Below, piece after piece: positions 1-12,167 of a DNA stretch of 12,167 nt. The stretch is from a virus (taxonomy: Duplodnaviria; Heunggongvirae; Uroviricota; Caudoviricetes). How positions within the stretch are numbered: position 1 is the stretch's first letter; the number at the start of each line of letters is the position of its first letter. The position numbers were made by a program, and so were the translations under genes. The stretch is from positions 1 to 12,167 of IMG/VR virus record IMGVR_UViG_2617270997_000007; one strand, given 5' to 3'. Below the pieces are notes generated by a model. That model was not told the origin of the DNA. It was given only the letters and a program-made list of their open reading frames with translations, and searched no databases.

Positions 1-31
1 GGTAAATCTTTAAATTCCATCGTCAACCTCA

Positions 32-184
32 TCAGTCGGAGTTTCTTGCTAACCAGCGACGCGCGCCAGCTTCGGTTTTAAACGTTTTGCTTTTGGTATA
101 TGTCATGGCGGTGAATGTGCCGTCCTGGTTGGGGAACACACCACATACCAGAGATTCGCTGTTGCCAAGATCGATAGTATCCAT
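32..184 (-). CDS. Small hypothetical protein (50 aa) downstream of the repressor gene, at the position lambda uses for rex-type accessory genes
   Basis: The track ORF 32..289 begins with TTG and has no Shine-Dalgarno. The in-frame ATG at 184 is preceded on the - strand by GAGG with about 6 nt spacing, giving MDTIDLGNSESLVCGVFPNQDGTF... The longer TTG form cannot be excluded. Confidence 0.35.
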   Translation of the reverse strand: MDTIDLGNSESLVCGVFPNQDGTFTAMTYTKSKTFKTEAGARRWLARNSD

Positions 185-373
185 GCTGACCTCATTACCC
201 CTTAACGCCGGGTAGCGGAACTGTTTGCTGAGAACACCGTGCGGTGTCTTGATGGGTGGTAATTTAGTTTTATCATGAATGTTGGTCAAGCATTTTTAAT
301 GAGAAAACTCAATATTTAATGCAAAATAAAGCCAATACATTGAAATGTAAGGCTTTAAAATTTGTGAAGGGGG

Positions 374-781
374 TTACTGATGTTTGTTACGTTTGCGAGC
401 TTCTAGTAGCTCGGTGAATAGGCGATTAAAATTCTCAACGCGGGCACGGAGTTCGCTGATTTGTGCTTGCTGCTCTGATTTTGGAAGTGCGCGATACAAT
501 CGCAACATCTCCAACTCATCTTCCGATAAGTCTAAGGCGCTGTTGAGTGCTACTGGTGGATCTGGTGTTTTATCCTCGTCACCAAACAGTATCCAAGTTG
601 GTGAACATTGCAATACCTCAGCCAGGCGATGCAAATTTTGCCCGCGCGGGGCTGTATGGTCGCTTTCCCATAGTGAAATTGATGAGCCAGATACGCCAGC
701 GGCTTTGCTTAAATCGTTTTGACTTAAACCAACCTGTTTGCGTCTTTCTCTAATTCGTTGACCTAAAGTTTTCTCGTTCAT
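374..781 (-). CDS. dicA: HTH (XRE-family) prophage repressor, DicA-like, 135 aa, no peptidase S24 domain
   Basis: Complete ORF, MNEKTLGQRIRERRKQVGLSQNDLSKAAG... with the motif LQCSPTWILFGDEDK that I recall from E. coli DicA (also 135 aa). Divergent from a Cro-like gene. Too short to carry a LexA-like autocleavage domain. Confidence 0.8.
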   Translation of the reverse strand: MNEKTLGQRIRERRKQVGLSQNDLSKAAGVSGSSISLWESDHTAPRGQNLHRLAEVLQCSPTWILFGDEDKTPDPPVALNSALDLSEDELEMLRLYRALPKSEQQAQISELRARVENFNRLFTELLEARKRNKHQ

Positions 782-858
782 ATTTAGATATCTTAATAAC
801 CCTTGACTTGAGATTCCTTGAATGATTACTATTGAGAAAACTCAACTTTGGAGGGGTG
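782..858. promoter_or_regulatory. Divergent promoter/operator region between the repressor and Cro-like genes
   Basis: 77-bp intergenic spacer between divergent start codons. TTGACT at 803-808, an 18-bp spacer, then TACTAT at 827-832 could drive the Cro-like gene. GGAGGGG at 850-856 is its ribosome-binding site. Operator half-sites were not resolved by eye. Confidence 0.45.
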
Positions 859-1086
859 ATGTTTAAATCAGACGTAATTAATTTTTATGGGACGAAAGCC
901 AAAGTAGCGAAAGCTGCTGGTGTTGATCCATCTGCTGTTTCTCAATGGGGGGAACTGGTTCCTGAAGGTCGCGCGATGCGCCTGCAAGAGGCATCCGGCG
1001 GGGAACTTCAGTACGACCCCAAAGTTTATGACGAATATCGTAAGGCAAAGCGGGCGGGGCGGTTGAACAATGAAAATCACCCCTGA
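859..1086 (+). CDS. dicC: Cro/DicC-like small DNA-binding protein (75 aa)
   Basis: ATG 859 preceded by GGAGGGG; the track ORF starts further upstream at a TTG (832). Small basic protein divergent from the DicA-like repressor, the classic cro position. Sequence MFKSDVINFYGTKAKVAKAAGVDPSAVSQWGELVPEGRAMRLQEASGGELQYDPKVY... The symbol is from memory of DicC and is not verified. Confidence 0.55.
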   Translation: MFKSDVINFYGTKAKVAKAAGVDPSAVSQWGELVPEGRAMRLQEASGGELQYDPKVYDEYRKAKRAGRLNNENHP

Positions 1087-1621
1087 ACAGGTTTGTGAGG
1101 CTCTGGATGCCTGGGTATGTCGACCAGGAATGACACAGGAGCAAGCGACGATATTAATCACGGAAGCATTCTGGGCTCTGAAAGAACGCCCGAACATCGA
1201 TGTTCAACGCGTCACGTTTAATGATGGCGAGGTTGATCAACGGGCGCTGGGCGTTAACCGGGTGAAGATATTCGAACGCTGGAAAGCTATCGACACCAGG
1301 GATAAGCGGAAAAAATTCACGGCGCTGATTCCGGCAATTATGGAGGCTATCCGAATTAGTGATTTCAGGTTGTATCGTGAGATCAGTGATGGAAAAAGCA
1401 TTACGTACATGATCGCCGGATTAAACAAAGAATATGGCGATGTGGTGGAGTCCGGGCTGCTTTTTGCGGATCCAGCTGTTGTGGAACGTGAGACTGACGA
1501 GCTTATAGAAAAAGCTATTGCTTTCAAGCATGCGTATCGTCAGCAATATCAATATTACTTTGCAGATAAACAAATGTCTGCCAGGGGTTTGTATGAGTAT
1601 CGATGCACTACGATGGGCTAA
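1070..1621 (+). CDS. YdaT-like / CII-position early regulatory protein (183 aa)
   Basis: Complete ORF immediately after the Cro-like gene, overlapping its end by 17 nt. Lambda cII and Rac ydaT occupy this position. The family assignment rests on position and memory, not on a search. Confidence 0.45.
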   Translation: MKITPEQVCEALDAWVCRPGMTQEQATILITEAFWALKERPNIDVQRVTFNDGEVDQRALGVNRVKIFERWKAIDTRDKRKKFTALIPAIMEAIRISDFRLYREISDGKSITYMIAGLNKEYGDVVESGLLFADPAVVERETDELIEKAIAFKHAYRQQYQYYFADKQMSARGLYEYRCTTMG

Positions 1622-2633
1622 AAAGGTGAAAACCGGCAGTTCATCCAGTAAGTCTGTATTGACCTGGCTTGCTGATATGTGCGGTGCCGATTTGTGTGCA
1701 TACCCGTCTGTATCTGCACTGGCAGAAGTAACGGAACTAAACAAAAAGACTGTGCAGGACAGCTTACGACACCTGATGGAGATTGGGTTAATTGTTGATA
1801 CCGGTGAGAGAAAAGGCAGAACAAAGCAAATTGTGGTGTACCGACTTATCGGTGTAGAAGAAAGTGTTGCCGAGCCTGAATACACCCAAAAACGGGAGTC
1901 TTTAAAGGTGGGTAAAATTGGTGCTGTTAATAAAAACAGTACCGAAAATGGTTATGTTTCAGCACAAAACAGACCCAAAAACGGAACTCTTAGCTGCATG
2001 GAAAATAACCAAAGACACCCAAATTTTCCATCAAAGACACCCAAAAACGGATCACGGAACCCAAAGGAACCCAAAGATCTAAACCCCACACATAACGCAC
2101 GCGAGAGTGCTCCGACCAGTGAGCAGGAAGTTTTGTCGTTACAGGCAGCACCCCTTGTATTCCTGGATGGCCTGAGCGAACCCATCGGAAAATTACCGAT
2201 GACCGATAGCTGGTATCCGTCACGGGATTTTCGACGACGGGCTGCGTTGTGGGGGATGGCTTTGCCGGAGACAGAATTTACACCTGCTGAACTTGCCGCC
2301 TTCCGGGACTACTGGGCAGCGGAGGGGAAAGTGTTTACGCAGATTCAGTGGGAGCAGAAATTCGCCCGTCACGTAAATCACGTCAGGGCGCAGGTTAAAC
2401 CAGTCAGCAAGGGGGTAAACCATGCAGCAGCACCAGGTGGCACCGCATCACGGGCAGTTCAGGAAATTCGGGCAGCACGTGAGCAGTGGGAACGTGAAAA
2501 CGGATTTATCAGCGACGGAAACGGTCTGGAAGCTGTGGGAACTCATGGGGGAGGTTTATTCGAACCGCTGGACCCAGAAGAACGGGGCCGCACCTTCGAA
2601 GCTCTGGATTGCACAGATTGGCGCGATGACTGA
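1593..2633 (+). CDS. Phage replication initiation protein (O-like): N-terminal HTH/winged-helix domain, low-complexity linker, C-terminal domain
   Basis: ATG 1593 (MSIDALRWAKK...) chosen over the longer track start at 1518. N-terminus has an HTH-like segment (SVSALAEVTELNKKTVQDSLRHLMEIGLI). The linker is encoded by iteron-like DNA repeats. It lies immediately upstream of a lambda-P-like gene. Confidence 0.6.
   Translation: MSIDALRWAKKVKTGSSSSKSVLTWLADMCGADLCAYPSVSALAEVTELNKKTVQDSLRHLMEIGLIVDTGERKGRTKQIVVYRLIGVEESVAEPEYTQKRESLKVGKIGAVNKNSTENGYVSAQNRPKNGTLSCMENNQRHPNFPSKTPKNGSRNPKEPKDLNPTHNARESAPTSEQEVLSLQAAPLVFLDGLSEPIGKLPMTDSWYPSRDFRRRAALWGMALPETEFTPAELAAFRDYWAAEGKVFTQIQWEQKFARHVNHVRAQVKPVSKGVNHAAAPGGTASRAVQEIRAAREQWERENGFISDGNGLEAVGTHGGGLFEPLDPEERGRTFEALDCTDWRDD
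1966..2078. repeat. Iteron-like direct repeats with an adjacent AT-rich tract inside the O-like gene (candidate replication origin)
   Basis: The 13-mer acccaaaaacgga occurs at 1973-1985 and 2039-2051; caaagacacccaaa at 2010-2023 and 2032-2045; ggaacccaaa in tandem at 2056-2065 and 2066-2075. An AT-rich stretch lies just upstream (1921-1972). Confidence 0.4.
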
Positions 2634-3087
2634 GCAGCAAATCCGACAGGTCTGCCGCCAGTGCATGGACCGCTGCCGGGCGGGTGAAACATGGCCTCCG
2701 GACCTGGCTGAGTTTGTGGCGCTGATTTCAGAAAGCGGGGCCAATCCATTTGGCCTGACGGTGGATGCTGTGATGGAGGAGTACCGCCGCTGGCGTGATG
2801 AGTCCTGGCGATATGACGGAAGCGACAAATATCCGTGGCCTCAGCCTGTGCTGTACCACATCTGCCTCGAAATGCGTACCAGAGGGATTGAGCGCCAGAT
2901 GACGCAGGGTGAGTTAAAACGACTTGCGGAACGGCAACTGACGAAATGGGCAAAGCATGTTGGTAACGGGATGAGTGTTCCGCCAGTGCGACGACAACTG
3001 GAAGGGGCGAAACACCCGCAAGGGCCAACGCCAATTGAACGGCTGAAACAGGAATACGAACGCCGGAAGGCAGCTGGTTTTATTTGA
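2422..3087 (+). CDS. Replication protein P-like (DnaB helicase loader), 221 aa
   Basis: C-terminal two-thirds aligns by eye with lambda P as I remember it: PPDLAEFVALISE to PSPGQFVAWCREE, and YDGSDKYPWPQPVLYHIC...GELKRLAERQL to YPDAESYPWKSNAHYWLV...AELRRKAADEL. ATG 2422 has a strong AGGGGG site 7 nt upstream. Alternative starts are 2545 and 2626 (ATGACTGA overlapping the O-like stop). Confidence 0.7.
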   Translation: MQQHQVAPHHGQFRKFGQHVSSGNVKTDLSATETVWKLWELMGEVYSNRWTQKNGAAPSKLWIAQIGAMTEQQIRQVCRQCMDRCRAGETWPPDLAEFVALISESGANPFGLTVDAVMEEYRRWRDESWRYDGSDKYPWPQPVLYHICLEMRTRGIERQMTQGELKRLAERQLTKWAKHVGNGMSVPPVRRQLEGAKHPQGPTPIERLKQEYERRKAAGFI

Positions 3088-3120
3088 ATCTGAGAAACGA
3101 TTTTGTCGGAGGAAATTTTA

Positions 3121-3891
3121 ATGGAAACCGTATTTGACGCACTGAAAGCAATGGGAAAAGCCACATCGGTAGAACTGGCCGCGCGACTTGATATCAGTCG
3201 TGAAGAGGTTCTCAACGAGCTGTGGGAACTCAAAAGAAATGACGTCGTTGATAAAACTGGTCACACCTGGTTTCTGGCTGGCGAAGGTGAATCCCGGGTA
3301 ACCGAAGAGCGGCCAGTAAAATCTGAAGCACAGGATATGCTGACCGGAGAGGTCGAACAAAAAGTTACCGCAGACATGATGATTGAGTTTATCGGTCAGG
3401 ATGGTGCTAAAACGTGTGAGGAACTGGCGGGTAAGTTCGGCGTCAGTACTCGCAAGGTTGCCTCCACGCTGGCGGTGGTAACCGCAATGGGGCGGCTGGC
3501 ACGCGTTAATCAGAACGGTAAATTTCGTTACTGCATGCCGGGCGATAATTTACCAGCAGAGCCGAAAGCCGCGCTGGTAACGGAAAGTGATGGTAAGGCC
3601 TTTCCTCAGCCAGCAGGTGCTGCGTTACCAGTCCGGGAAGCCGCAACACAGGAAGAAATTAAAACAGAAACTGTGGCGGACATTGTGCAGCCGTTGCCAT
3701 CGTTTACCGAAACGCAAGCAGATGAGCTGATTTTTCCGTCCCTTCGCAGGGCAAACCTGGCGCTGCGCAGGGCGAAAAGTGATGTTCAGAAGTGGGAGCG
3801 AGTCTGCGCCGCGCTGCGGGAGCTGAACAAGCACCGGGATATTGTTCGACAGATTACTGATTCTTCCCGCCGTGTTGTATCGGAAAAGTGA
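3121..3891 (+). CDS. Hypothetical protein with two winged-helix-like segments (256 aa)
   Basis: ATG 3121 with GGAGG 8 nt upstream; the track ORF starts at TTG 3103. Two HTH-like stretches: [26 protein letters not shown] and [31 protein letters not shown]. First gene of a coupled operon. Confidence 0.6.
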
Positions 3892-3906
3892 TTGCCGGAG
3901 GCGCTT

Positions 3907-4299
3907 ATGGCAAAAGTATTTACACCAGAAGAGCGGGAAGAAGTGAAGGCGCGCATTGTGGAATTCGTGCGCCTGAGCGGACGAGAAACTTTTCGACAAC
4001 TGGCAGATAAAACGGGTGTCAGTAAGACCGCTATTCGTCGTTTATCTGGTGCGCTTGCGGCCAGTGGTGATGTCTGGCTCTCTGGTTGCGGGGTATTTCC
4101 ATCAGAGCAGGCGTATCGCGTATGGCGTAAGACACCGGAGAAGGCTGCTGACCCGACACTGATTCGAAAGTTACCTGACGGAGAAATACGTCGTTACAAC
4201 AGACGGCAGAACATAATTTTTCGTGAGTGCCGCCAGAGCGAAGTTATGCAGCGTGTGCTGGCGTTCTATCGGGGAAACTTTCAGGAGGTGATGGAGTGA
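3907..4299 (+). CDS. Hypothetical protein with an HTH-like segment (130 aa)
   Basis: ATG 3907 with GGAGG 5 nt upstream; the track ORF starts at TTG 3892. Contains FRQLADKTGVSKTAIRRL. Its stop TGA 4297-4299 overlaps the next gene's GTG start. Confidence 0.55.
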   Translation: MAKVFTPEEREEVKARIVEFVRLSGRETFRQLADKTGVSKTAIRRLSGALAASGDVWLSGCGVFPSEQAYRVWRKTPEKAADPTLIRKLPDGEIRRYNRRQNIIFRECRQSEVMQRVLAFYRGNFQEVME

Positions 4300-4592
4300 G
4301 GGTCAGAGTTTATATTGCCGGTCCAATGACGGGATATGAAAATTTCAACCGTGAGGCGTTTCACAAGGCGGAAGAGGAACTGAAACGGGAAGGGCATACC
4401 GTCTTAAACCCGGCAGTACTTCCGGACGGGCTGACACAGCCGCACTACATGGATATTTGCATGGCAATGATTCGTTGTGTGGATGCGATTTACATGCTGA
4501 ATGGCTGGCAGCGGTCAGCGGGCGCTAAGGCAGAGCTGGCACTGGCGGAGAAACTGGGGCATGCAGTGATTTATCAGGAGGTGGCTCAATGA
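4296..4592 (+). CDS. DUF4406 / nucleoside 2-deoxyribosyltransferase-like small protein (98 aa)
   Basis: GTG 4296 with AGGAGG 7 nt upstream and a GTGA start/stop overlap. Motif VYIAGPMTGYENFN, then a conserved acidic region, as in the deoxyribosyltransferase/Rcl-like fold. Assignment is from motif memory. Confidence 0.55.
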   Translation: MRVRVYIAGPMTGYENFNREAFHKAEEELKREGHTVLNPAVLPDGLTQPHYMDICMAMIRCVDAIYMLNGWQRSAGAKAELALAEKLGHAVIYQEVAQ

Positions 4593-5056
4593 GAGAGGTT
4601 AACTATGAGGCGCTTCGTGAGGCAGCACAAAACTATCAGTCGACGCTGGCGTGGTATCAGGCTATCCCGGACAGCCCAAATGCTGAACGGGATTGTGATG
4701 CGGCTCTTGCTGCATTTAAGCGTCACATCCGTCATCGGGAAGCGGATATTATCGCTGATTTGCTGGATGGACTGGAAGAAGCAAAATCACAACTCAAAGA
4801 GCAGCGTGAGTATTACGAAGGCGTTATCTCTGATGGGAGCAAGCGTATTGCTGAACTGGAAGCGCGGGAAGTTCAATTACCGACTCGCTACGACCTTCGA
4901 TATGGACACCCGATAAATGCAGATGAGCGACATGTCATGATACCTAAAGAAAATGGCAGTTGGCTTTACCTGATTGACCTAGAACACGCATTACGCGTCT
5001 CTGGCATTCGCATCAAAGGAGAGGAGCATGGAAATAAAACCCAGAGGATGAGTTAA
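4589..5056 (+). CDS. Hypothetical phage protein with a predicted coiled-coil region (155 aa)
   Basis: ATG 4589 overlaps the upstream stop (ATGA), with GGAGG upstream. No recognisable catalytic motif. Confidence 0.6.
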   Translation: MREVNYEALREAAQNYQSTLAWYQAIPDSPNAERDCDAALAAFKRHIRHREADIIADLLDGLEEAKSQLKEQREYYEGVISDGSKRIAELEAREVQLPTRYDLRYGHPINADERHVMIPKENGSWLYLIDLEHALRVSGIRIKGEEHGNKTQRMS

Positions 5057-5086
5057 GCAATATCGTTTTATTTCCGGTAAAAGAGG

Positions 5087-5385
5087 ATGACCCTCGTAAT
5101 CAGGTTAATTTTCTTTATGAGCCATCGGAAAGACCATATTGTCATCACGCCTCTGTCCGGGTTGACGAAAAAGAGCGTCAGGTCCGCTGTAAAATCTGCG
5201 GTGCAGTTGTGGAGCCATTTGACTGGATGCTCTCTGTGGCGAAAAGAGAAACCAGACTGGCAGATGATGTAAGGCACTTGCGCCAGGAGGAGCGGGAAAG
5301 GCGAAAAAATATAGAAAAGCTAATTCAGATTGAGCGTAACGCGAAAGCGCGGATACGCAGGGCGACAAAATCCAGAACTGAATAA
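5087..5385 (+). pseudogene. Zinc-ribbon/coiled-coil ORF with a disrupted start: open frame 5038-5385 has no ATG/GTG/TTG before 5209. Possible frameshift at the T-run 5109-5116 or non-canonical initiation
   Basis: Frame-1 translation is protein-like over about 115 codons: ...NQVNFLYEPSERPYCHHASVRVDEKERQVRCKICGAVVEPFDWMLSVAKRETRLADDVRHLRQEERERRKNIEKLIQIERNAKARIRRATKSRTE*. It fills an otherwise empty 420-bp gap in a tightly packed operon. The only upstream ATG (5087) is in another frame. Confidence 0.3.
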
Positions 5386-5454
5386 TTAAATTTAGCTCTG
5401 TTAAAAATTTAATCCTTAACCGGAGGGATTTCTGCACCCTCAGAACATCAGGAG

Positions 5455-5472
5455 GCCGCCCGAAAGGGCGGT
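5455..5472 (+). promoter_or_regulatory. GC-rich hairpin with GAAA loop between the Shine-Dalgarno AGGAGG (5450-5455) and the ATG at 5479
   Basis: Stem ccgccc (5456-5461), loop gaaa, stem gggcgg (5466-5471), plus a possible G-U closing pair 5455/5472. No U-tract follows, so it is not a typical terminator. Folding would bring the SD from 23 nt to about 7 nt from the start codon. Confidence 0.35.
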
Positions 5473-5478
5473 AGTTAA

Positions 5479-5661
5479 ATGCGAAAGTTTAAAATAATTA
5501 TTGAAACGGGAATAGCCGGTGGAGATTTCGAGGATGAATTCGAAGTGGATGATGATGCGACGCCTGATGAAATACATGACGAAGCAAAAGATATTTTCTT
5601 TAACTACTGCAATTACTCATATCACGAAATAAAAGACGAAGAGGAAGAGCAAAATGGCTGA
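5479..5661 (+). CDS. Small, highly acidic protein (60 aa)
   Basis: MRKFKIIIETGIAGGDFEDEFEVDDDATPDEIHDEAKDIFFNYCNYSYHEIKDEEEEQNG: about 40% Asp/Glu. Complete ORF in the coupled operon. Confidence 0.55.
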   Translation: MRKFKIIIETGIAGGDFEDEFEVDDDATPDEIHDEAKDIFFNYCNYSYHEIKDEEEEQNG

Positions 5662-5830
5662 TTTTGGTTCAACTAAATACAACGTCAGTTTTGAAGCATG
5701 GCATGAACTGTTAATGGACTATGCAGAGTTACGTGGTGGCAGTGCTGCTGATGCTGAAGCATGGCGTGATGATTATGAAGCAGGAAAAACTCCGGTCGAA
5801 GCATATTGTGATGAGTGGGGCGATGAATGA
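5654..5830 (+). CDS. Small acidic protein (58 aa), not in the supplied ORF track
   Basis: ATG 5654 with GAGGAAG 6 nt upstream, overlapping the previous stop. Translation MADFGSTKYNVSFEAWHELLMDYAELRGGSAADAEAWRDDYEAGKTPVEAYCDEWGDE*. Its stop TGA 5828-5830 overlaps the next ATG at 5827 (ATGA). Confidence 0.45.
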   Translation: MADFGSTKYNVSFEAWHELLMDYAELRGGSAADAEAWRDDYEAGKTPVEAYCDEWGDE

Positions 5831-6342
5831 GCGAGATTAATTATCAGGAAGGGCATGAAACGGCAGGGCAGGCAAAACCAGTTGCATGGCGATATCGCTA
5901 CGTGAAAAAAGACGTTACAGACTTTCAGGGGAAGCCGTGGGCTGGTGACTGGAAATATGTACCGACAAAAGAGGATTGTAACGACAGGCCGAACTATGAA
6001 ATTCAGGCCTTATTCATCGGCCCGCCAGTCCCGGTGACATCAGAAGGACTGGTTAAAGCCGTGCGCTTTTATGAACAGGTAAAGCGTGAGAATCCGCCAG
6101 TCGAAACAGGAGCATGGAAGGATGCTGTTGACTGGGTGCTCAGAGAGGCCTGCTGCGCTGCCATTCTGGGTAAAGCCGACAATCCACCAGCATCCGGCAA
6201 TCAGGTTAGCGAATTAACAATGTGGGTTAAACGACTGGTCAGTCAACTGAAAAAAGCTCAGCCGGACTGCAAATTACCGGAGAAGGCGATGGATTACCTG
6301 AAACGAAATGGACTGATAAGCGTGGAGGATGTTTTACGATGA
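5827..6342 (+). CDS. Hypothetical phage protein (171 aa), last gene of the coupled operon
   Basis: Complete ORF with ATGA coupling to the upstream small ORF. No recognisable motif. Confidence 0.6.
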   Translation: MSEINYQEGHETAGQAKPVAWRYRYVKKDVTDFQGKPWAGDWKYVPTKEDCNDRPNYEIQALFIGPPVPVTSEGLVKAVRFYEQVKRENPPVETGAWKDAVDWVLREACCAAILGKADNPPASGNQVSELTMWVKRLVSQLKKAQPDCKLPEKAMDYLKRNGLISVEDVLR

Positions 6343-6462
6343 ATATTTAGACTAAAGAGTTTGTAACGCTATGTAAGTGATTTTTTCTGGTTTAGATATT
6401 TATATGTTCGGCCAAATTGAGGTGTGTTTAAATGTTATTGCACATTGATTGTAGGGGGAATA

Positions 6463-6642
6463 ATGAAAAACGCATTGCAGTTTTTGTTTGTTGCGTTCTG
6501 GTTGTTCGCATCATGTATGCCCATCATCTTCACAGCAAGGTATATGGAAAAAATTGATGTTTTGATATTAATGTTTGGACATATAAATGCCCTTTTTTTA
6601 GGGGTGTTCATGGCGGTCATGTGCATTGAATACTGGCGGTAA
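6463..6642 (+). CDS. Small hydrophobic membrane protein (59 aa, two predicted TM helices) in an AT-rich moron
   Basis: ATG 6463 with GGGGGA just upstream; the track ORF starts at GTG 6424. Sequence MKNALQFLFVAFWLFASCMPIIFTARYMEKIDVLILMFGHINALFLGVFMAVMCIEYWR. The surrounding region 6343-6660 is visibly AT-rich compared with its neighbours. Confidence 0.45.
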   Translation: MKNALQFLFVAFWLFASCMPIIFTARYMEKIDVLILMFGHINALFLGVFMAVMCIEYWR

Positions 6643-6784
6643 ATACAGCGAACGCCATTGGTTTAGTTGGATATTTACTGTGCCGGACAAAAACGGTTTG
6701 CGGGGAAATCTTAGTTAAGTAGAATAACTGCGGGTGCTTGAGGCTATCTGTCTCAGGCATGAACACCAAAAGGCAGATAGAGAA

Positions 6785-6851
6785 AAGCCCCAGTTAACAT
6801 TACGCGTCCTGCAAGACGCTTAACATTAATCTGAGGCCATATCTATGCGAC
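6785..6851 (-). ncRNA. sok: Sok-like antisense RNA of the hok locus (approximate position)
   Basis: Expected by analogy with hok/sok loci. A candidate - strand promoter has TTGACC (complement of 6882-6887), an 18-bp spacer and TAATCT (complement of 6858-6863), directing transcription leftward across the hok leader. The 3' end is not defined. Confidence 0.25.
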
Positions 6852-6904
6852 ACATAGAGATTAGCCTCTTACGGACCGAAAGGTCAAGGAGAAGCAGGCT
6901 ATGA
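6845..6904 (+). CDS. Mok-like short upstream ORF (19 codons) coupled to hok
   Basis: ATG 6845, translation MRHIEISLLRTERSRRSRL*, with stop TGA 6902-6904 overlapping the hok ATG (ATGA). Too short to judge on composition alone. Confidence 0.25.
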   Translation: MRHIEISLLRTERSRRSRL

Positions 6905-7056
6905 AGCAGCAAAAGGCGATGTTAATCGCCCTGATCGTCATCTGTTTAACCGTCATAGTGACGGCACTGGTAACGAGGAAAGACCTCTGCGAGGTACGAA
7001 TCCGAACCGGCCAGACGGAGGTCGCTGTCTTCACAGCTTACGAACCTGAGGAGTAA
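6901..7056 (+). CDS. hokD: Hok/Gef-family type I toxin (51 aa), HokD/RelF-like
   Basis: Translation MKQQKAMLIALIVICLTVIVTALVTRKDLCEVRIRTGQTEVAVFTAYEPEE*, which matches Hok-family toxins and, as far as I recall, E. coli HokD closely. AAGGAG lies 9 nt upstream. Absent from the ORF track because it is under 60 aa. Confidence 0.85.
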   Translation: MKQQKAMLIALIVICLTVIVTALVTRKDLCEVRIRTGQTEVAVFTAYEPEE

Positions 7057-7126
7057 GAGACCCGGCGAGGGAGAAATCCCTCGCCACCTCTGATGTGGCA
7101 GGCATTCTCAACGCACCCGCACTTAA

Positions 7127-7150
7127 CCCGCTTCGGCGGGTTTTTGTTTT
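7127..7150 (+). terminator. Rho-independent terminator at the 3' end of the hok transcript
   Basis: Stem cccgc / loop ttcg / stem gcggg followed by tttttgttttt. A separate perfect 9-bp hairpin (ggcgaggga-gaaa-tccctcgcc, 7064-7085) lies just after the hok stop and may be the 3' fold-back element of hok mRNA. Confidence 0.75.
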
Positions 7151-7272
7151 TATTTTCAACGCATTTGAAGTTCTGGACGGTGCCGGAATAGAATCAAAAA
7201 TACTTAAGTAGCGCGCAGGGATAAGAGGGATGGTCCCTTAAAGGGGAGAGCTAATTATCCGGAAGGATTCTG

Positions 7273-7524
7273 ATGATGAACATCGAAGAACTGCGTAAAA
7301 TTTTTTGTGAAGATGGCCTCTATGCTGTGTGCGTTGAAAATGGAAATATTGTTAGTCATTACCGCATTGTGTGTTTGCAAAAAAATGGGGCTGCGTTAAT
7401 TAATTTTGTGGATGCCCGAGTGACGGACGGATTTATCTTGCGCGACGGTGAGTTTGTCACTTCATTACAGGTATTGAAAGAGATCGGAATAAAAGCTGGC
7501 TTTTCTGCTTTTTCAGAAGAATAA
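7273..7524 (+). CDS. rem: Rem-like small protein (83 aa)
   Basis: Complete ORF with GGAAGGA 5 nt upstream of ATGATG. Same size and position (between hok and the DUF968 gene) as rem in the K-12 Qin prophage. Symbol is from synteny and size, not sequence recall. Confidence 0.4.
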   Translation: MMNIEELRKIFCEDGLYAVCVENGNIVSHYRIVCLQKNGAALINFVDARVTDGFILRDGEFVTSLQVLKEIGIKAGFSAFSEE

Positions 7525-7590
7525 ACTCATCTACAATCTTGCGCGGGGCTGAACTCCCGCTGAGTAACACCGTGCCACCGGAGAAAACCG

Positions 7591-7869
7591 ATGGCACGCA
7601 ACGCAAAATATTACAAACATGATAATTCGACCGTTCTTGCCCACACGCACGAGCGGTATTCTCACGCATTTAAGTCAGACTGGTACCAGCATCCCCCATG
7701 CACTGAAGAACAGGCCGAATGGCTCATTCAGTGTTACCGCAGGCGCGGATGCGAGGTTAAAAAAGCCCTTAGCCTCGACTACCGTCACTGGATAATCTCC
7801 GTCAGGCTTCCTTACTCCGAACGCCCACCGCGTCTGTCCCGCACATTCCAGCAACGCATCTGGAGGTAA
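7591..7869 (+). CDS. Hypothetical phage protein (92 aa)
   Basis: Complete ORF with GGAG 8 nt upstream. Its stop lies 1 nt before the GTG start of the DUF968 gene. Confidence 0.55.
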   Translation: MARNAKYYKHDNSTVLAHTHERYSHAFKSDWYQHPPCTEEQAEWLIQCYRRRGCEVKKALSLDYRHWIISVRLPYSERPPRLSRTFQQRIWR

Positions 7870-7870
7870 C

Positions 7871-8917
7871 GTGCGGGTATTACTTCGACCTGTTCTGGTA
7901 CCGGAACTCGGGCTGGTGATCGTTAAGCCGGGCCGTGAATCCATGCCGGTATTCCACAATACCCGGGTACTGGTGGAGCCGGAACCGAAAAGCATGCGTA
8001 ATCTGCCGTCCGGGGTCGTTCCTGCCGTTCGCCAGCCGCTGGCGGAGGATAAATCATTACTGCCATTTTTCAGCGACGAACGAGTGATTCGTGCTGCTGG
8101 TGGCGCTGGCGCATTGTCTGACTGGTTACTGCGCCATGTTAAATCCTGCCAGTGGCCACACGGCGATTATCACCACAGTGAAACCGTCATTCACCGTTAT
8201 GGTACCGGCGCAATGGTGTTGTGCTGGCACTGCGACAACCAGCTGCGCGACCAGACCTCCGAATCACTCGGGCAACTTGCTCACCAAAACCTGTCTGCAT
8301 GGATGATTGACGTCATACGCCATGCAATGAATGGCTCGCAGGAACGGGAATTATCGCTGGCTGAATTATCCTGGTGGGCGGTCCGCAATCAGGTGGCGGA
8401 CGCGCTACCGGAAGCGGTATTACGTCGTTCGCTGGGGTTGCGTGCGGAAAAAATCCGCTCAATGTACCGTGAAAGCGACATCGTACCGGGAGAGCAGACC
8501 GCCACCAGCATACTGAAGCAGCGCACAAAAAATCTTGCGCCGCTGCCTCACGCCCACCAGCAAAACCCGCCACAGGAAGAGACGGTGGTCAGCATTGCCG
8601 TTGATCCTGAGTCTCCGGAATCTTTCATGAAACGACCTAAACGTCGCCGCTGGGTTAACGAGAAATACACACGCTGGGTGAAGACACAGCCGTGTGCGTG
8701 TTGTGGTAAGCCAGCCGACGATCCCCATCACCTGATTGGTCATGGTCAGGGCGGAATGGGGACAAAATCTCACGATATTTTCACGCTACCGCTGTGTCGG
8801 GAGCATCACAACGAGCTTCATGCGGATCCTCTGGCGTTCGAAGAAAAGCATGGTTCTCAGGTTGATTTAATTTTTCGTTTTCTTGATCACGCCTTTGCAA
8901 CTGGCGTGCTTGGGTAA
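7871..8917 (+). CDS. ydfU: DUF968-family protein (YdfU-like, 348 aa) with a C-terminal HNH-like zinc-finger motif
   Basis: GTG 7871 with GGAGG upstream. C-terminus CACCGKPADDPHHLIGHGQGGMGTKSHDIFTLPLCREHHNELH has the CxxC...HH...H...C..HH..H pattern of HNH nucleases. Size and position match Qin YdfU from memory. Confidence 0.6.
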   Translation: MRVLLRPVLVPELGLVIVKPGRESMPVFHNTRVLVEPEPKSMRNLPSGVVPAVRQPLAEDKSLLPFFSDERVIRAAGGAGALSDWLLRHVKSCQWPHGDYHHSETVIHRYGTGAMVLCWHCDNQLRDQTSESLGQLAHQNLSAWMIDVIRHAMNGSQERELSLAELSWWAVRNQVADALPEAVLRRSLGLRAEKIRSMYRESDIVPGEQTATSILKQRTKNLAPLPHAHQQNPPQEETVVSIAVDPESPESFMKRPKRRRWVNEKYTRWVKTQPCACCGKPADDPHHLIGHGQGGMGTKSHDIFTLPLCREHHNELHADPLAFEEKHGSQVDLIFRFLDHAFATGVLG

Positions 8918-8929
8918 AAGAGGTGACTG

Positions 8930-9304
8930 ATGCTCATAGATTTGGTTTTACCTTACCCGCCGACGGTGAACACTTACTGGCGACGCCGTGGCAGCACATA
9001 TTTTATCTCGGAGGAGGGAAAGCGTTATCGCCGGGCTGTGGCGCTTATTGTTTGCCAGCAGCGGCTGAAATTAAGCCTGTCCGGAAGGCTGGCGATAAAG
9101 GTGATTGCAGAGCCACCGGATAAGCGTCGTCGCGACCTGGACAATATCCTGAAAGCACCGCTGGATGCGCTGACGCATGCGGGAGTGTTAATGGACGATG
9201 AGCAGTTTGATGAAATCAATATCGTTCGTGGTCAGCCAGTATCTGGTGGACGTCTGGGGGTGAAGATTTACCCCATAATGCATGAAGAGCAGGTCAAAAA
9301 ATGA
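8930..9304 (+). CDS. rusA: RusA crossover-junction endodeoxyribonuclease (Holliday junction resolvase), 124 aa
   Basis: Motifs PYPPTVNTYWRRRG, RRRDLDNILKAPLDALT and MDDEQ line up with the RusA signature (WPPSNNRYY, RRRDLDN, DD.Q). AGAGGTGA upstream. Confidence 0.85.
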   Translation: MLIDLVLPYPPTVNTYWRRRGSTYFISEEGKRYRRAVALIVCQQRLKLSLSGRLAIKVIAEPPDKRRRDLDNILKAPLDALTHAGVLMDDEQFDEINIVRGQPVSGGRLGVKIYPIMHEEQVKK

Positions 9305-10122
9305 AACTGGAAGATTTACCGAAATACTACTCCCCAAAATCCCCTGGCCTGACCGATGCATCGGCCTCAACGTCAAAAGATGCGCTGAGTATCACTGATG
9401 TGATGGCCGCGCAGGGCATGACACAGAATCGGGCTGAGATGGGTTTTTCTGCGTTCCTGGGGAAAATGGGCATCAGTATGAATGACAGGGTGCGGGCAAC
9501 AGAATTACTGGCAGATTATGCACTCAGTCGGTGCGATCGTGTGGCGGCGTTGAGAAAACTTCCGGCAGAAATAAAACCGGTAGTGATGCGCATTATGGCT
9601 TCGTACGCTTTTGAGGATTATGCCCGCAGCGCAGCGAGTAAAAAGCAGTGCCCTTGTTGCTATGGGGAAAAATTTATTGAAAGCATAGTTTTTACAAACA
9701 AGGTCCAGTATCCGGATGGTAAGCCGCCGGTATGGGCAAAGTGTACGAAAGGTGTGTATCCGTCTTACTGGGAAGAATGGAAAAAAGTCAGGGAGGTGGT
9801 AAAAGTTGCCTGTCCGGAGTGTGGCGGAAAGGGTGAGGTTTCCACCGCCTGTAAGGATTGCCGTGGGCGTGGTGTCGCCATTCACCGTGAAGAGTCGGTA
9901 AAACGTGGTATGCCTGTTATCAGAGACTGCCAGCGTTGTGGTGGTCGTGGCTATGAAAGACTACCATCAACGGAGGCATTTAATGCTATATGCGAGGTGA
10001 CAAACCAGATAACACGCGCGTCATGGGAAAAAACAGTTAAGAAATTCTATGATGCGCTGGTGACCCGGTTTGATATTGAAGAAGCATGGGCTGAGCGGCA
10101 GTTAAAAAAGGTAACTAGGTAA
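9301..10122 (+). CDS. Late-gene antitermination protein Q-like (273 aa) with CxxC zinc fingers
   Basis: ATG 9301 overlaps the rusA stop (ATGA). Cys-rich C-terminal region CPECGGKGEVSTACKDCRGRG...CQRCGGRGY. Sits directly upstream of a lambda-type PR', the canonical Q position. Confidence 0.6.
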   Translation: MKLEDLPKYYSPKSPGLTDASASTSKDALSITDVMAAQGMTQNRAEMGFSAFLGKMGISMNDRVRATELLADYALSRCDRVAALRKLPAEIKPVVMRIMASYAFEDYARSAASKKQCPCCYGEKFIESIVFTNKVQYPDGKPPVWAKCTKGVYPSYWEEWKKVREVVKVACPECGGKGEVSTACKDCRGRGVAIHREESVKRGMPVIRDCQRCGGRGYERLPSTEAFNAICEVTNQITRASWEKTVKKFYDALVTRFDIEEAWAERQLKKVTR

Positions 10123-10128
10123 CAAGGT

Positions 10129-10156
10129 TGATTTTTCCGGAATCTGTGGTAAATTC
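10129..10156 (+). promoter_or_regulatory. Late promoter PR' (lambda-type), with the downstream pause-region motif
   Basis: -35 TTGATT (10129-10134), 16-bp spacer containing TGg, -10 TAAATT (10151-10156), then cgtcataacgATGGG. Lambda PR' as I recall it is TTGACT ... TAAATT tgactcaacgATGGG, so the -10 and the aacgATGGG block are shared. Confidence 0.6.
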
Positions 10157-10204
10157 GTCATAACGATGGGCCTTTTATGCCTGACGTTAGAAGAGTTTCT
10201 ACAA

Positions 10205-10229
10205 CCCGCCGCCGAGCGGGTTTTTTATT
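10205..10229 (+). terminator. Rho-independent terminator about 50-65 nt downstream of PR' (tR'-like)
   Basis: Stem cccgc (10206-10210), loop cgccga, stem gcggg (10217-10221), then tttttt. Confidence 0.6.
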
Positions 10230-10264
10230 GCGGAATTAATTACGGACCGTTATTATTCTGCTCC

Positions 10265-10340
10265 CGGCCCTTTAGCTCAGTGGTGAGAGCGAGCGACTCA
10301 TAATCGCCAGGTCGCTGGTTCAAATCCAGCAAGGGCCACC
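10265..10340 (+). tRNA. ileZ: tRNA-Ile2 (anticodon CAU, lysidine type; formally also readable as Met), 76 nt with encoded CCA
   Basis: Cloverleaf folded by hand: acceptor ggccctt/aagggcc, D-stem gctc/gagc, anticodon loop ctCATaa, T-arm gctgg-ttcaaat-ccagc, discriminator A, CCA. Near-identical to E. coli ileX as recalled. Confidence 0.85.
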
Positions 10341-10347
10341 ATCACAT

Positions 10348-10424
10348 ACCGCCATTAGCTCATCAGGAAAGAGCGCCAGCCTTCGAAGCTGGTTGCGCGG
10401 AGTTCGGGTCCCCGAAGGCGGTCC
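10348..10424 (+). tRNA. argN: tRNA-Arg (anticodon UCG), 77 nt, with non-canonical features
   Basis: Anticodon arm ccagc-ctTCGaa-gctgg is perfect and D-stem gctc/gagc is good. The acceptor stem has one A-A mismatch at pair 6, the T-stem has one A-C mismatch, and the T-loop is ttcgggt (G where the conserved A58 is expected). CCA is encoded. Confidence 0.6.
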
Positions 10425-10437
10425 ATTATCTGTATCC

Positions 10438-10514
10438 TGCGTTGTTAGCTCAGCCGGACAGAGCAATTGCCTTCTAAGCAATCGGTCACTGGTTCGAATC
10501 CAGTACAACGCGCC
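10438..10514 (+). tRNA. argO: tRNA-Arg (anticodon UCU), 77 nt with encoded CCA
   Basis: Clean cloverleaf: acceptor gcgttgt/acaacgc, D-stem gctc/gagc, anticodon arm attgc-ctTCTaa-gcaat, T-arm actgg-ttcgaat-ccagt, discriminator G, CCA. Confidence 0.85.
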
Positions 10515-10529
10515 ACACTTATTTTCCCT

Positions 10530-10552
10530 GGCTCGCTTTTGCGGGCTTTTTT
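10530..10552 (+). terminator. Rho-independent terminator after the tRNA cluster
   Basis: Stem ggctcgc (with one G-U pair), loop tttt, stem gcgggc, followed by a 7-nt T-run. Confidence 0.6.
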
Positions 10553-10557
10553 TTAAA

Positions 10558-10770
10558 TGTCTCACAATTCAGGCGGTTGACTGTTGTCTGGTTTGCGGGG
10601 AGTTTGTTAAAAGAAACTGGCATGGTGAATCCCCCTGTGCGGAGGGGCAATCAGCGAGTAGGTATATGGGATAATCGCGGATTCAGGTGCTGGTACTGAA
10701 TTCACCGGGAGGCACCCGGCACCATGCAATGGCACATAGCGCCACTCTCCAGCCCCTCTCCGGAGGGGCT
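10558..10770 (+). repeat. Structured repeat module A: promoter-like -35, two conserved GC hairpins and a terminal terminator hairpin (candidate small RNA or leader cassette)
   Basis: Shares ordered blocks with module B: ctcacaattcag; TTGACT (10574-10579); tttgttaaaa; hairpin cccct-gtgcgg-agggg (10629-10644); hairpin ccggg-aggca-cccgg (10702-10716) followed by ATG; terminator gcccctc-tccg-gaggggc (10749-10766) plus tttt. Confidence 0.6.
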
Positions 10771-10964
10771 TTTCTGTGCCGGATACATCACAGTTTCTGG
10801 AACCTTAGGTACTACAGTATCAGTCAGGGTGCTATATTTTCAGATGTGATGAAAGCCTGTCAGCAGGCAGGGCGTATCGGAAATGACCCAGTAGAGAAAA
10901 CGTTGACTCAGATACCGGTGCTGAGTTACCGGGAAACCGGCATCACATGACCGCTATCCTTCCA

Positions 10965-10991
10965 GGCCCATCCGCTCCGGTGGGCCTTTTT
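10965..10991 (+). terminator. Rho-independent terminator between the two repeat modules
   Basis: Stem ggccca (10965-10970), 10-nt loop, stem tgggcc (10981-10986), then ttttt. It closes a short unit containing a possible 33-codon ORF at 10849-10950, which has no convincing Shine-Dalgarno and is not called. Confidence 0.45.
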
Positions 10992-11028
10992 ACTGCAGAA
11001 AACAGGTTCCCCGTTAAATGCTATGTTG

Positions 11029-11262
11029 CTCACAATTCAGTAAGTTGACAGTTGCCTGTCAGACTGGGCATTTGTTAAAAAAATTTCGCATGGTGAATCC
11101 CCCTGAGCGGAGGGGCGACTGGTGACGGTATAATCTCTGATTATCAAAACGAGAATGACGCGGGTTTAGTGGCACCGGGCTGAACTCACCGGGAGGCACC
11201 CGGCACCATGTGCATGATGATACAGATACGCGGCTTTAGCCCCTCTCCGGAGGGGCTTTCTT
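11029..11262 (+). repeat. Structured repeat module B, paralogous to module A
   Basis: Same blocks in the same order: ctcacaattcag (11029-11040); TTGACA (11045-11050); tttgttaaaa; hairpin ccccctgagcggagggg; a TATAAT at 11129-11134; caccgggaggcacccggcaccATG; terminator gcccctc-tccg-gaggggc (11239-11256) plus T-tract. It has about 20 bp of insertion relative to A. Confidence 0.6.
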
Positions 11263-11267
11263 ATGGA

Positions 11268-11297
11268 CAAAAAAAGCCCGCGCTGGGAGACGCGGGC
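11268..11297 (-). terminator. Minus-strand intrinsic terminator immediately after module B
   Basis: On the + strand an A7 tract (11269-11275) precedes the hairpin gcccgcg-ctgggaga-cgcgggc (11276-11297). Read on the - strand this is hairpin plus U-tract. No convincing - strand gene lies upstream of it. Confidence 0.4.
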
Positions 11298-11490
11298 GGC
11301 AAGGAATAAACAATAAAACGTGAAGTAATATTTCAGCTGGCGAATAATACCCCATAGTAATCACTCTGCGCAACTGCGCGGTCTTTTTCGAATTGCGGGC
11401 TGTAGTCTCCCTTCTGCCATTGTCCTGTAACTTCCGGACTTCAGCCTGCTCCTTATCTGACTCACAACATTATCCCGCCCGGGAGGATTC

Positions 11491-11679
11491 ATGGCATTTA
11501 AACACTATGACGTGGTCAGGGCGGCATCGCCGTCAGACCTTGCGAAACGACTGACACAAAAACTGAAGGAGGGCTGGCAGCCGTTTGGTAGTCCGGTGGC
11601 CATAACCCCTTATACCCTGATGCAGGCGATTGCAGCAGAAGGTGATGTGGTGGTCAGTGGTGCAACTGAGCCGGAGTGA
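11491..11679 (+). CDS. DUF1737-like small protein (62 aa), commonly found just upstream of lambdoid lysis cassettes
   Basis: Complete ORF with GGGAGG 5 nt upstream. Translation [62 protein letters not shown]. Family assignment is from memory of position and size. Confidence 0.55.
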   Translation: MAFKHYDVVRAASPSDLAKRLTQKLKEGWQPFGSPVAITPYTLMQAIAAEGDVVVSGATEPE

Positions 11680-11837
11680 TACTACGTCATCGTACTGGCC
11701 CGGCATTCCAGGCCATAAAAGACGGTCTGGCAGTGGGACTAAATGCACTGACGCTGACGGATATTACCAAAAATGCAACGTATGGCGTTGAGATAGAAAG
11801 TCTGGTGCTGGAGATAAATGCACCGGCATCATCATAA
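11676..11837 (+). CDS. Possible small ORF (54 codons, GTG start) coupled to the DUF1737-like gene; not in the ORF track
   Basis: GTG 11676-11678 overlaps the upstream TGA (GTGA). Translation [53 protein letters not shown]. The upstream ribosome-binding site is weak. Confidence 0.3.
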
Positions 11838-11921
11838 AAAGTGAGCCAGTCAAATGGAAGGTATCGTTAAACTCACCGGTAGTGTCAGTGGGTCGTCTGA
11901 GACGCCTGCATGAGTTATCAG

Positions 11922-11950
11922 AGCCATCAGTACTTAACTGGTGGCTTTTT
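11922..11950 (+). terminator. Rho-independent terminator 28 nt upstream of the holin start
   Basis: Stem gccatcag (11922-11929), loop tacttaa, stem ctggtggc (one G-U pair), followed by ttttttatt. Confidence 0.55.
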
Positions 11951-11977
11951 TATTGTTGTCAGCTTCCGGATAACGGG

Positions 11978-12167
11978 AGACGGGGTATGTACCAGATGGA
12001 AAAAATCACAACAGGTGTGTCATACACCACGTCAGCGGTGGGAACGGGCTACTGGTTCCTGCAGTTGCTGGACAGGGTTTCCCCGTCTCAGTGGGCGGCA
12101 ATAGGCGTGCTGGGGAGTCTGCTGTTTGGGCTGCTGACATATCTGACTAACCTGTATTTCAAAATCA
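11978..12167 (+). CDS. S: Class II holin (phage 21 S21-type pinholin), 3' end cut off by the window
   Basis: Translation [60 protein letters not shown]... resembles S21 as recalled ([63 protein letters not shown]...). Two in-frame starts at codons 1 and 4 (ATG 11978 and 11987). No stop before position 12167. Confidence 0.8.

Follow-up and report, generated by a model that had tools for sequence, protein, structure and literature searches.

A one-base insertion very probably accounts for a start-less zinc-ribbon reading frame in a lambdoid prophage of Escherichia coli

Results

Gene content of the locus

The window, that is, the whole 12,167-nt stretch analysed (positions 1 to 12,167 of IMG/VR record IMGVR_UViG_2617270997_000007), forms the early-right part of a prophage of lambdoid (Rac/Qin-like) type. 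Its genes follow in the order repressor, Cro and YdaT; DnaT-like and P replication genes; DUF1627, DUF977 and DUF4406; an Ea22-like gene; the zinc-ribbon gene that is the subject of this work; DUF7167 and two small ORFs; sok/hokD and rem; DUF968, RusA and a Q-like antiterminator; and three tRNAs. A preliminary description of this DNA regarded the stretch around the zinc-ribbon gene as the only gap in a densely packed operon; this holds roughly for positions ~1070-6342, but a second non-coding stretch, which holds sok, is found at ~6343-6900.

The Ead/Ea22-like gene occupies positions 4589-5056 of the + strand, on which the other features of the locus described here also lie; in the ORF list it encodes 155 amino acids in this window, and it matches Pfam Ead_Ea22 with E=9.9e-12. 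In frame 1, a TAA at 5035-5037 is followed by an open stretch that ends with the TAA at 5383-5385. Both the sequence and the ORF list bear out the earlier observation that frame 1, open from 5038 to 5385, contains no ATG, GTG or TTG before 5209; the GTG at 5209 is the earliest canonical start in this frame and opens an ORF of 58 amino acids (5209-5385). An ATG at 5087 in frame 2, which opens a 61-aa ORF, and a tttt-c-ttt run at 5109-5116 are likewise present as described. The frame-1 translation, including …PEDELSNIVLFPVKEDDPRNQVNFLYEPSERPYCHHASVRVDEKERQVRCKICG…, is protein-like, with a CHH…CKIC pattern and a basic helical tail, and is 100% identical to an intact protein that 1000 or more contigs encode.

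An intact single-frame homologue and its start

When the region 4900-5500 was compared by megablast with phage records, matches were obtained in several E. coli phages, and three of these have an annotated intact gene at the equivalent site. The gp17 protein of ArgO145 (YP_009907882.1) has 118 residues, reads MEIKPEDELSNIVLFPVKEDD… and begins at an ATG (MEIKPEDELSN…), whereas its counterpart in vB_EcoS-689R5 (URC08890.1) begins at a GTG (VEINPEDELSN…). From residue 6 onward the homologue equals the frame-1 peptide of the window; five codons precede that point, starting from an ATG equivalent to position 5028. In the window this ATG (5028-5030), which the preliminary description overlooked, lies in frame 3, within the final codons of the gene upstream of it (4589-5056), and is preceded at a distance of 6 nt by a Shine-Dalgarno sequence, AAGGAG (5016-5021), which is invariant in the alignment with the three phages. 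RefSeq annotation of NZ_CP026723 (E. coli strain 266917_2) places an intact 118-aa gene at the same start, and there, as in the annotation of the intact neighbours, the gene overlaps the upstream Ea22-like gene by 23 nt. The preliminary description had proposed a search for an intact single-frame homologue and the position of its start, and this proved to be the decisive check.

Three orthologues (ArgO145 gp17, 689R5 URC08890.1 and E. coli WP_104858444.1) were compared with the window gene more closely. All three belong to PHROG 1621 and are annotated as 'hypothetical protein'; they are 95-100% identical to the window gene at the protein level, lie like it between an Ea22-like gene and a DUF7167 gene, and share with it the Shine-Dalgarno sequence, the start and the 23-nt overlap. 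They differ in that they have CC and are read in a single frame, whereas the window has CCC. In ArgO145 and Stx2a phages the gene follows another Ea22-like gene, elsewhere in the phage genome. In six phage records with an unrelated upstream flank, similarity begins at window position 5001, 27 nt 5' of the ATG; a module boundary therefore lies at the gene junction.

A single inserted C alters two proteins

Alignment with the three phages placed a 1-nt, frame-shifting insertion at 5040-5042, where the window has CCC and the intact copies have CC. The extra C is the sole length difference between the window and these phages (ATGGAAATAAAACCCAGAGG in the window, ATGGAAATAAAA-CCAGAGG in the phages). 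Read with CC, the start of the gene is ATG GAA ATA AAA CCA GAG GAT GAG (MEIKPEDE…); read with CCC, it is ATG GAA ATA AAA CCC AGA GGA TGA, which encodes MEIKPRG followed by a stop and leaves the downstream part in frame 1. What remains at the true start is thus a 7-codon ORF in frame 3 (5028-5051, TGA at 5049-5051), and codons 5/6 to 118 with the stop TAA at 5383-5385 make up the frame-1 remainder (5041-5385), in which the coding sequence is otherwise undamaged.

The same difference was seen against the closest complete E. coli genome, NZ_CP026723: over 10,513 aligned bases there were 30 mismatches and one gap, and that sole gap is the extra C. With the C removed, the window gene is nucleotide-identical to an intact allele found in 16 IMG/VR copies. 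The gene in the window consequently shows both an indel relative to intact orthologues and a premature stop (MEIKPRG-stop), as a frameshift pseudogene does, and it has no uninterrupted ORF from its own start, the C separating the ATG at 5028 from the rest. The preliminary description was right that the gene is split by a frameshift but wrong about the site and the mechanism, the lesion lying at 5040-5042, four codons after the ATG at 5028; among the three options that it offered (a decaying pseudogene, a sequencing or assembly indel, and programmed slippage), the first comes closest.

In the window, the final 29 nt of the Ea22-like gene overlap the start of the zinc-ribbon gene, and the extra C also alters the Ea22-like C-terminus, from …NKTRG (153 aa, TGA) to …NKTQRMS (155 aa, TAA at 5054-5056). 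A single base inserted in the gene overlap therefore changes two proteins simultaneously.

The family and its predicted structure

The intact homologue matches PHROG 1621, a family of unknown function, over residues 1-117 with E=1.5e-56; this full-length match is that of the intact homologue, to whose allele the window gene corresponds once the C is removed. Database homologues numbered 151, down to ~46% identity, and were spread across Enterobacterales (E. coli, Shigella, Salmonella, Klebsiella, Kluyvera, Yokenella, Erwinia, Serratia, Pluralibacter and Yersinia); all are 'hypothetical'.

Conservation was judged on an alignment of 38 sequences from ~10 genera. Four potential ligands, C38, H40, C54 and C57, are invariant in all 38 and present in the window peptide; their codons lie at 5140-5142 (Cys38), 5146-5148 (His40), 5188-5190 (Cys54) and 5197-5199 (Cys57), wild-type numbering, and bound a putative zinc-knuckle region at 5140-5199. 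Upstream, an N-terminal motif, E-x-E-L-x-N…F-P, is encoded at 5044-5075; across the ~10 genera its E6, E8, L9 and N11 hardly vary, and its F15 and P16 do not vary at all. The most conserved stretch of the 38 sequences is C-terminal, LRxEExxRRxNIEKLIQIERNAKARIRR, much of which is invariant. The window peptide is hence a PHROG 1621 sequence both in its invariant ligands and in its conserved C-terminal helix motif. When 30 distinct intact alleles of the E. coli type were compared, the variable sites fell on the three codon positions as 8/10/32, the pattern that would be expected under purifying selection in frame 1. Because of the 100% match to an intact protein, the conservation of the family and this codon-position bias, the openness of frame 1 can be taken as more than chance.

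An AlphaFold (AF2) model was built from the 38-sequence alignment with the window's frame-1 peptide as its first row. Mean pLDDT was 76.7, the N-terminus being of low confidence. The model has short beta-hairpins around the four ligands, followed by one unbroken helix of ~55 residues (model residues 59-113) with block-mean pLDDT of ~83-97 for residues 61-110; this predicted long, basic C-terminal alpha-helix is encoded at 5215-5382. The product is accordingly modelled as a disordered acidic N-terminus, a predicted C-x-H…C-x-x-C zinc knuckle and a ~55-residue basic helix, and the earlier wording, a zinc ribbon with a basic helical tail, is a fair structural description. A Pfam match, to Zn_Ribbon_TF (PF08271), scored 21.5 bits (E=1.6e-4), under the gathering cut-off of 29 bits, and indicates resemblance only. 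TFIIB-type zinc ribbons (PF08271; PDB 1pft) likewise consist of a short beta-hairpin knuckle with four metal ligands; in the present protein, however, the first ligand pair is C-x-H, not C-x-x-C, and the ~55-residue basic helix is without counterpart in the TFIIB-type ribbon. Foldseek against the PDB returned no significant match, a TFIIB zinc ribbon ranking first with E=0.21. Sequences in the PDB gave no match in a profile search, no NCBIfam family matched, and none of the papers listed by one literature search dealt with this gene. Our guess would be that zinc stabilises a small protein which forms dimers or binds a partner, either nucleic acid or a second protein.

Distribution of the CCC allele

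The occurrence of the insertion was surveyed with a 67-nt probe centred on it; a single indel lowers identity below 99%, so a match was called as CCC at 99% identity or above. By this measure the CCC allele was found at 0 of 1,940 places (in 1,581 genomes) among 5,426 complete E. coli genomes, in 0 of 10 copies in phage records and in 0 of 8 copies in plasmid records. The exact CCC 36-mer had no occurrence in GTDB species representatives, nor had the exact CCC 31-mer in JGI metagenomes. In IMG/VR the 36-mer occurs in 3 contigs from 2 genomes, as against at least 120 loci with the CC form. The 155-aa variant of the Ea22-like protein serves as a marker of the CCC allele, because only CCC can produce it; this variant was counted on 92 contigs, drawn from assemblies in NCBI, ENA and Logan, compared with 1000 or more contigs for the 153-aa form.

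Five NCBI assemblies retrieved via the 155-aa protein all carry CCC, with 3-4 SNPs relative to the window in 6.5 kb and one substitution in the shifted ORF among the five. The three IMG/VR contigs with CCC differ from the window at 0-3 positions over 4184-8500; one of them is 98.4% identical overall, with the local 4 kb nearly identical, and its differences fall almost entirely at 8526-10228, a different antiterminator module. The carriers, among them GCA_000711525.1 and GCA_037638815.1, are thus nearly identical to one another, and independent isolates have the lesion in their DNA. From these comparisons the CCC allele is judged to be rare and derived; it travels with a single, nearly clonal prophage haplotype that a minority of E. 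coli isolates carry. Since the allele recurs in independent assemblies, the extra C is probably a genuine mutation and not a read error.

Other copies of the gene are also broken. Of 115 full-length IMG/VR copies, 12 (~10%) carry other disruptions; among these are two different nonsense mutations (8 copies) and three different frameshifts, and in 2 further IMG/VR copies homology is replaced part-way through the gene. Because these lesions are independent, the gene is evidently dispensable for the resident prophage, and the CCC allele represents one more loss.

Discussion

A frameshifted allele of a conserved prophage gene

We conclude with considerable confidence that positions 5028-5385 hold a frameshifted allele of a conserved 118-aa lambdoid-prophage gene. 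In the normal state, translation would begin at the ATG that follows AAGGAG, 23 nt inside the 3' end of the Ea22-like gene; because the start overlaps the end of its neighbour in this way, translational coupling is suggested. Insertion of one C into the CC of codon 5 converted CCA-GAG to CCC-AGA-G, such that ribosomes starting at 5028 yield MEIKPRG and terminate at the TGA at 5049, leaving the remaining 113 codons in frame 1 with no canonical start; the same base extends the Ea22-like protein, giving it a new tail (…TRG to …TQRMS). The insertion is a recent mutation, because the gene is otherwise identical to a common intact allele and shows no second lesion. Most likely the CCC allele is null or strongly reduced in function. 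It is an ordinary recent one-base frameshift and represents no new kind of gene expression; both alleles are already present in public databases.

Possible residual expression by +1 slippage

How complete the loss would be may depend on what ribosomes do at CCC-AGA-G (5040-5046), a candidate intrinsic +1 slippage site that the insertion itself created. It is possible, if doubtful, that the allele is leaky, with function reduced and not absent through intrinsic +1 frameshifting at this site and with no evolved recoding signal. Under such a scheme, peptidyl-tRNA-Pro (the proM isoacceptor, which reads CCN) would slip from CCC to CCA during the time that the A site needs to acquire the rare tRNA for AGA, and GAG would be read next; the product would be MEIKP|EDELSN…, the exact wild-type 118-aa protein, for which MEIKPEDELSNIVLFPVK would be a diagnostic peptide. 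The required anatomy is present, the slip having to precede the TGA at 5049, and there is precedent for the event. Huseby et al. (2020) described a +1-nt insertion in chromosomal rpoB of E. coli that is suppressed by a slip of the proM tRNA-Pro on a bare CCC-AGG-C, where a 5% +1 shift rescues the insertion (PMC7022156); E. coli CCC_UGA sites often shift at >1% (PMC5009743).

The rpoB Ser531 insertion resembles the present allele closely: in both, insertion of one C puts CCC and a rare arginine codon in frame, and in both a slip from CCC to CCA would restore the downstream frame (PMC7022156). They differ in that mass spectrometry and reporters demonstrated the rpoB shift, at AGG and in a gene that is essential and highly expressed (PMC7022156), whereas the present candidate site has AGA, in a dispensable gene and with a phage-supplied tRNA-Arg(TCT). 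That tRNA, encoded by the prophage itself at 10439-10515, reads AGA and should shorten the pause on which slippage depends. In addition, no Shine-Dalgarno-like stimulator is found at prfB-type spacing, the nearest GAGGAG ending at 5026, 13 nt upstream, and the site is missing from every other gene copy examined, so it is neither conserved nor selected. Measurable +1 suppression at CCC-AGA-G is for these reasons conceivable but improbable. If it does occur, a few per cent of ribosomes would shift, and the allele would parallel, in the wild, the laboratory case of CCC-AGG-C in rpoB. The fuller proposal, that one C both breaks the gene and creates the slippery site, giving an allele of reduced function that suppresses itself and is gaining ground within a lineage of E. 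coli prophages, is more speculative still, and we regard it as unlikely.

Programmed slippage, as offered in the preliminary description, is a different matter and is not supported, because the CCC site is missing from all other copies. Known programmed +1 sites include CUU_UGA in prfB, and CCC_UGA in the Listeria phage tsh gene and in pheL (reviewed in PMC5009743). CCC-AGA-G is like them in pairing a slippery P-site codon with a slowly decoded A-site codon, a likeness of anatomy only; they are conserved among homologues and often accompanied by a stimulator, whereas CCC-AGA-G occurs on one haplotype with no stimulator evident. Homologues in ~10 genera have no two-frame arrangement; the gene is read in one frame at 120 or more loci in IMG/VR, as it is in 10 phage and 8 plasmid records, and CCC is absent from all 1,940 E. 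coli places. No Rfam match, at E up to 1, that could represent a stimulatory element was obtained in 4950-5500, and no known RNA element or terminator was found in the same interval. Slippage at the level of transcription is also judged unlikely, because the A4 and C3 runs are too short.

Less likely alternatives: initiation within frame 1, artefact and other starts

Public gene calls in four carrier records begin a 107-aa 'hypothetical protein' (MVLFPV…) at an ATC codon (5062-5064), and 53 contigs with NCBI accessions encode this 107-aa product. The ATC follows the Ea22 stop by 5 nt and the stop of the mini-ORF by 10 nt, and an N-truncated protein might be made there by non-canonical initiation, perhaps as re-initiation after the stops at 5049-5051 or 5054-5056. 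We consider this improbable, and neither this route nor +1 slippage would alter the main conclusion. In E. coli, initiation at ATC is very weak; the codon has no Shine-Dalgarno sequence at a suitable distance (GAGG at 5044-5047 is 14 nt away), and the product would be without the nearly invariant E6, E8, L9 and N11. Most likely the ATC start is an annotation device and spurious, the 107-aa call being probably a homology-driven extension.

Slightly less credible again is an intact gene disguised by a sequencing or assembly error, another of the options put forward in the preliminary description. A one-base length change in a short homopolymer beside AAAA, missing from all 5,426 complete E. coli genomes, is what such an error might look like, but the identical allele is found in the three IMG/VR contigs (2 genomes) and in five separate NCBI assemblies, the marker protein occurs on 92 contigs from NCBI, ENA and Logan, and a 3-base run is not typical of homopolymer errors.

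Translation from the ATG at 5087 with a one-base shift into frame 1 at the T-run (5109-5116), giving the product MTLVIRLIF-LYEPSE…, can be set aside almost entirely, although the ATG and the run exist: intact homologues have the identical T-run, with no indel, and frame 1 continues through it as …NFLYEP…; the product would be deprived of the conserved residues of 5044-5086, including the N-terminal motif at 5044-5075; and the actual lesion lies elsewhere, at 5040-5042. A short gene from GTG 5209 or ATG 5227 was rejected as well: three of the four invariant zinc ligands would be missing, GTG 5209 beginning after Cys57 and ATG 5227 later still, and no homologue starts at either position.

Implications

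No unusual biology has to be invoked for the start-less ORF. In annotation it should appear as a frameshifted copy, starting at ATG 5028, of a hypothetical prophage gene that is already known, and neither the 107-aa protein from ATC nor the 58-aa ORF from GTG 5209 fits as an annotation. The PHROG 1621 family to which the gene belongs is widespread in Enterobacterales prophages. Intrinsic +1 frameshift suppression could be tested cheaply on the natural CCC-AGA-G of this allele, and, were such suppression to prove true, annotation would be wrongly discarding some 'frameshifted' genes.

Disruption of the zinc-ribbon gene in other prophages

The zinc-ribbon gene has been disrupted independently in other prophages among the IMG/VR contigs (loci L008, L040, L115, L122, L058, L066, L107, L027, L070, L045 and L056); the lesions include two different nonsense mutations, which account for eight copies, three frameshifts, and two cases in which the 3' part of the gene has been replaced. 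In some database entries the Ea22-like and zinc-ribbon frames are fused, as in the 202-aa homologue P0004 from Escherichia marmotae. The region in which the Ea22-like and zinc-ribbon genes overlap seems to be indel-prone.

The CCC allele, in which one extra C at 5040-5042 shifts the frame, is also carried by IMG/VR UViG_2617270997 contigs 000005 (L005) and 000002 (L006), both from one genome. Their identity to the window is 99.96-99.98%, and each of them stops at window position 9605. This suggests that the prophage segment occurs twice in that genome and that the assembly broke where a repeat or module boundary is shared.

The junction upstream of the zinc-ribbon gene

In the six phage records whose upstream flank is unrelated to that of the window, similarity to the window begins at 5001, 27 nt 5' of the ATG. 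The conserved junction CTGGCATTCGCATCAAAGGAGAGGAGC (window 5001-5027, shared with the phage loci L001-L003) codes for a C-terminal tail, …GIRIKGEEHGNK…, that otherwise dissimilar upstream genes have in common, and PHROG matches covering residues 138-152 alone agree with such a shared tail. This junction between genes is a typical mosaic boundary.

RNA elements and tRNA genes downstream

A strong GC hairpin (GCCGCCC-GAAA-GGGCGGU, 5454-5471), which lacks a T-tail, lies within the intergenic gap at 5386-5478 and directly precedes the start codon of the DUF7167 gene, an ATG at 5479. The hairpin was absent from the terminator-scan calls; the 95-nt gap that contains it gave a folding energy of -28 kcal/mol (z = -2.2). 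Further downstream, a sok antitoxin RNA (6732-6903; Rfam RF01794, 106.7 bits) adjoins a 51-aa Hok-family ORF (6901-7056), annotated as hokD in the closest genome, and the pair makes up a type I toxin-antitoxin module within the prophage.

ARAGORN identified three phage-borne tRNA genes at 10266-10515, 3' of the Q-like antiterminator, with anticodons CAT, Arg(TCG) and Arg(TCT); the CAT tRNA was called 'Met', whereas its equivalent is tRNA-Ile in RefSeq annotation. The sRNA family STnc100 (RF02076) is represented twice 3' of the cluster, at 10591-10781 (136 bits) and 11059-11268 (165 bits). The phage tRNA-Arg(TCT) reads the rare AGA codon, and is therefore relevant to any AGA-dependent pausing at 5043-5045.
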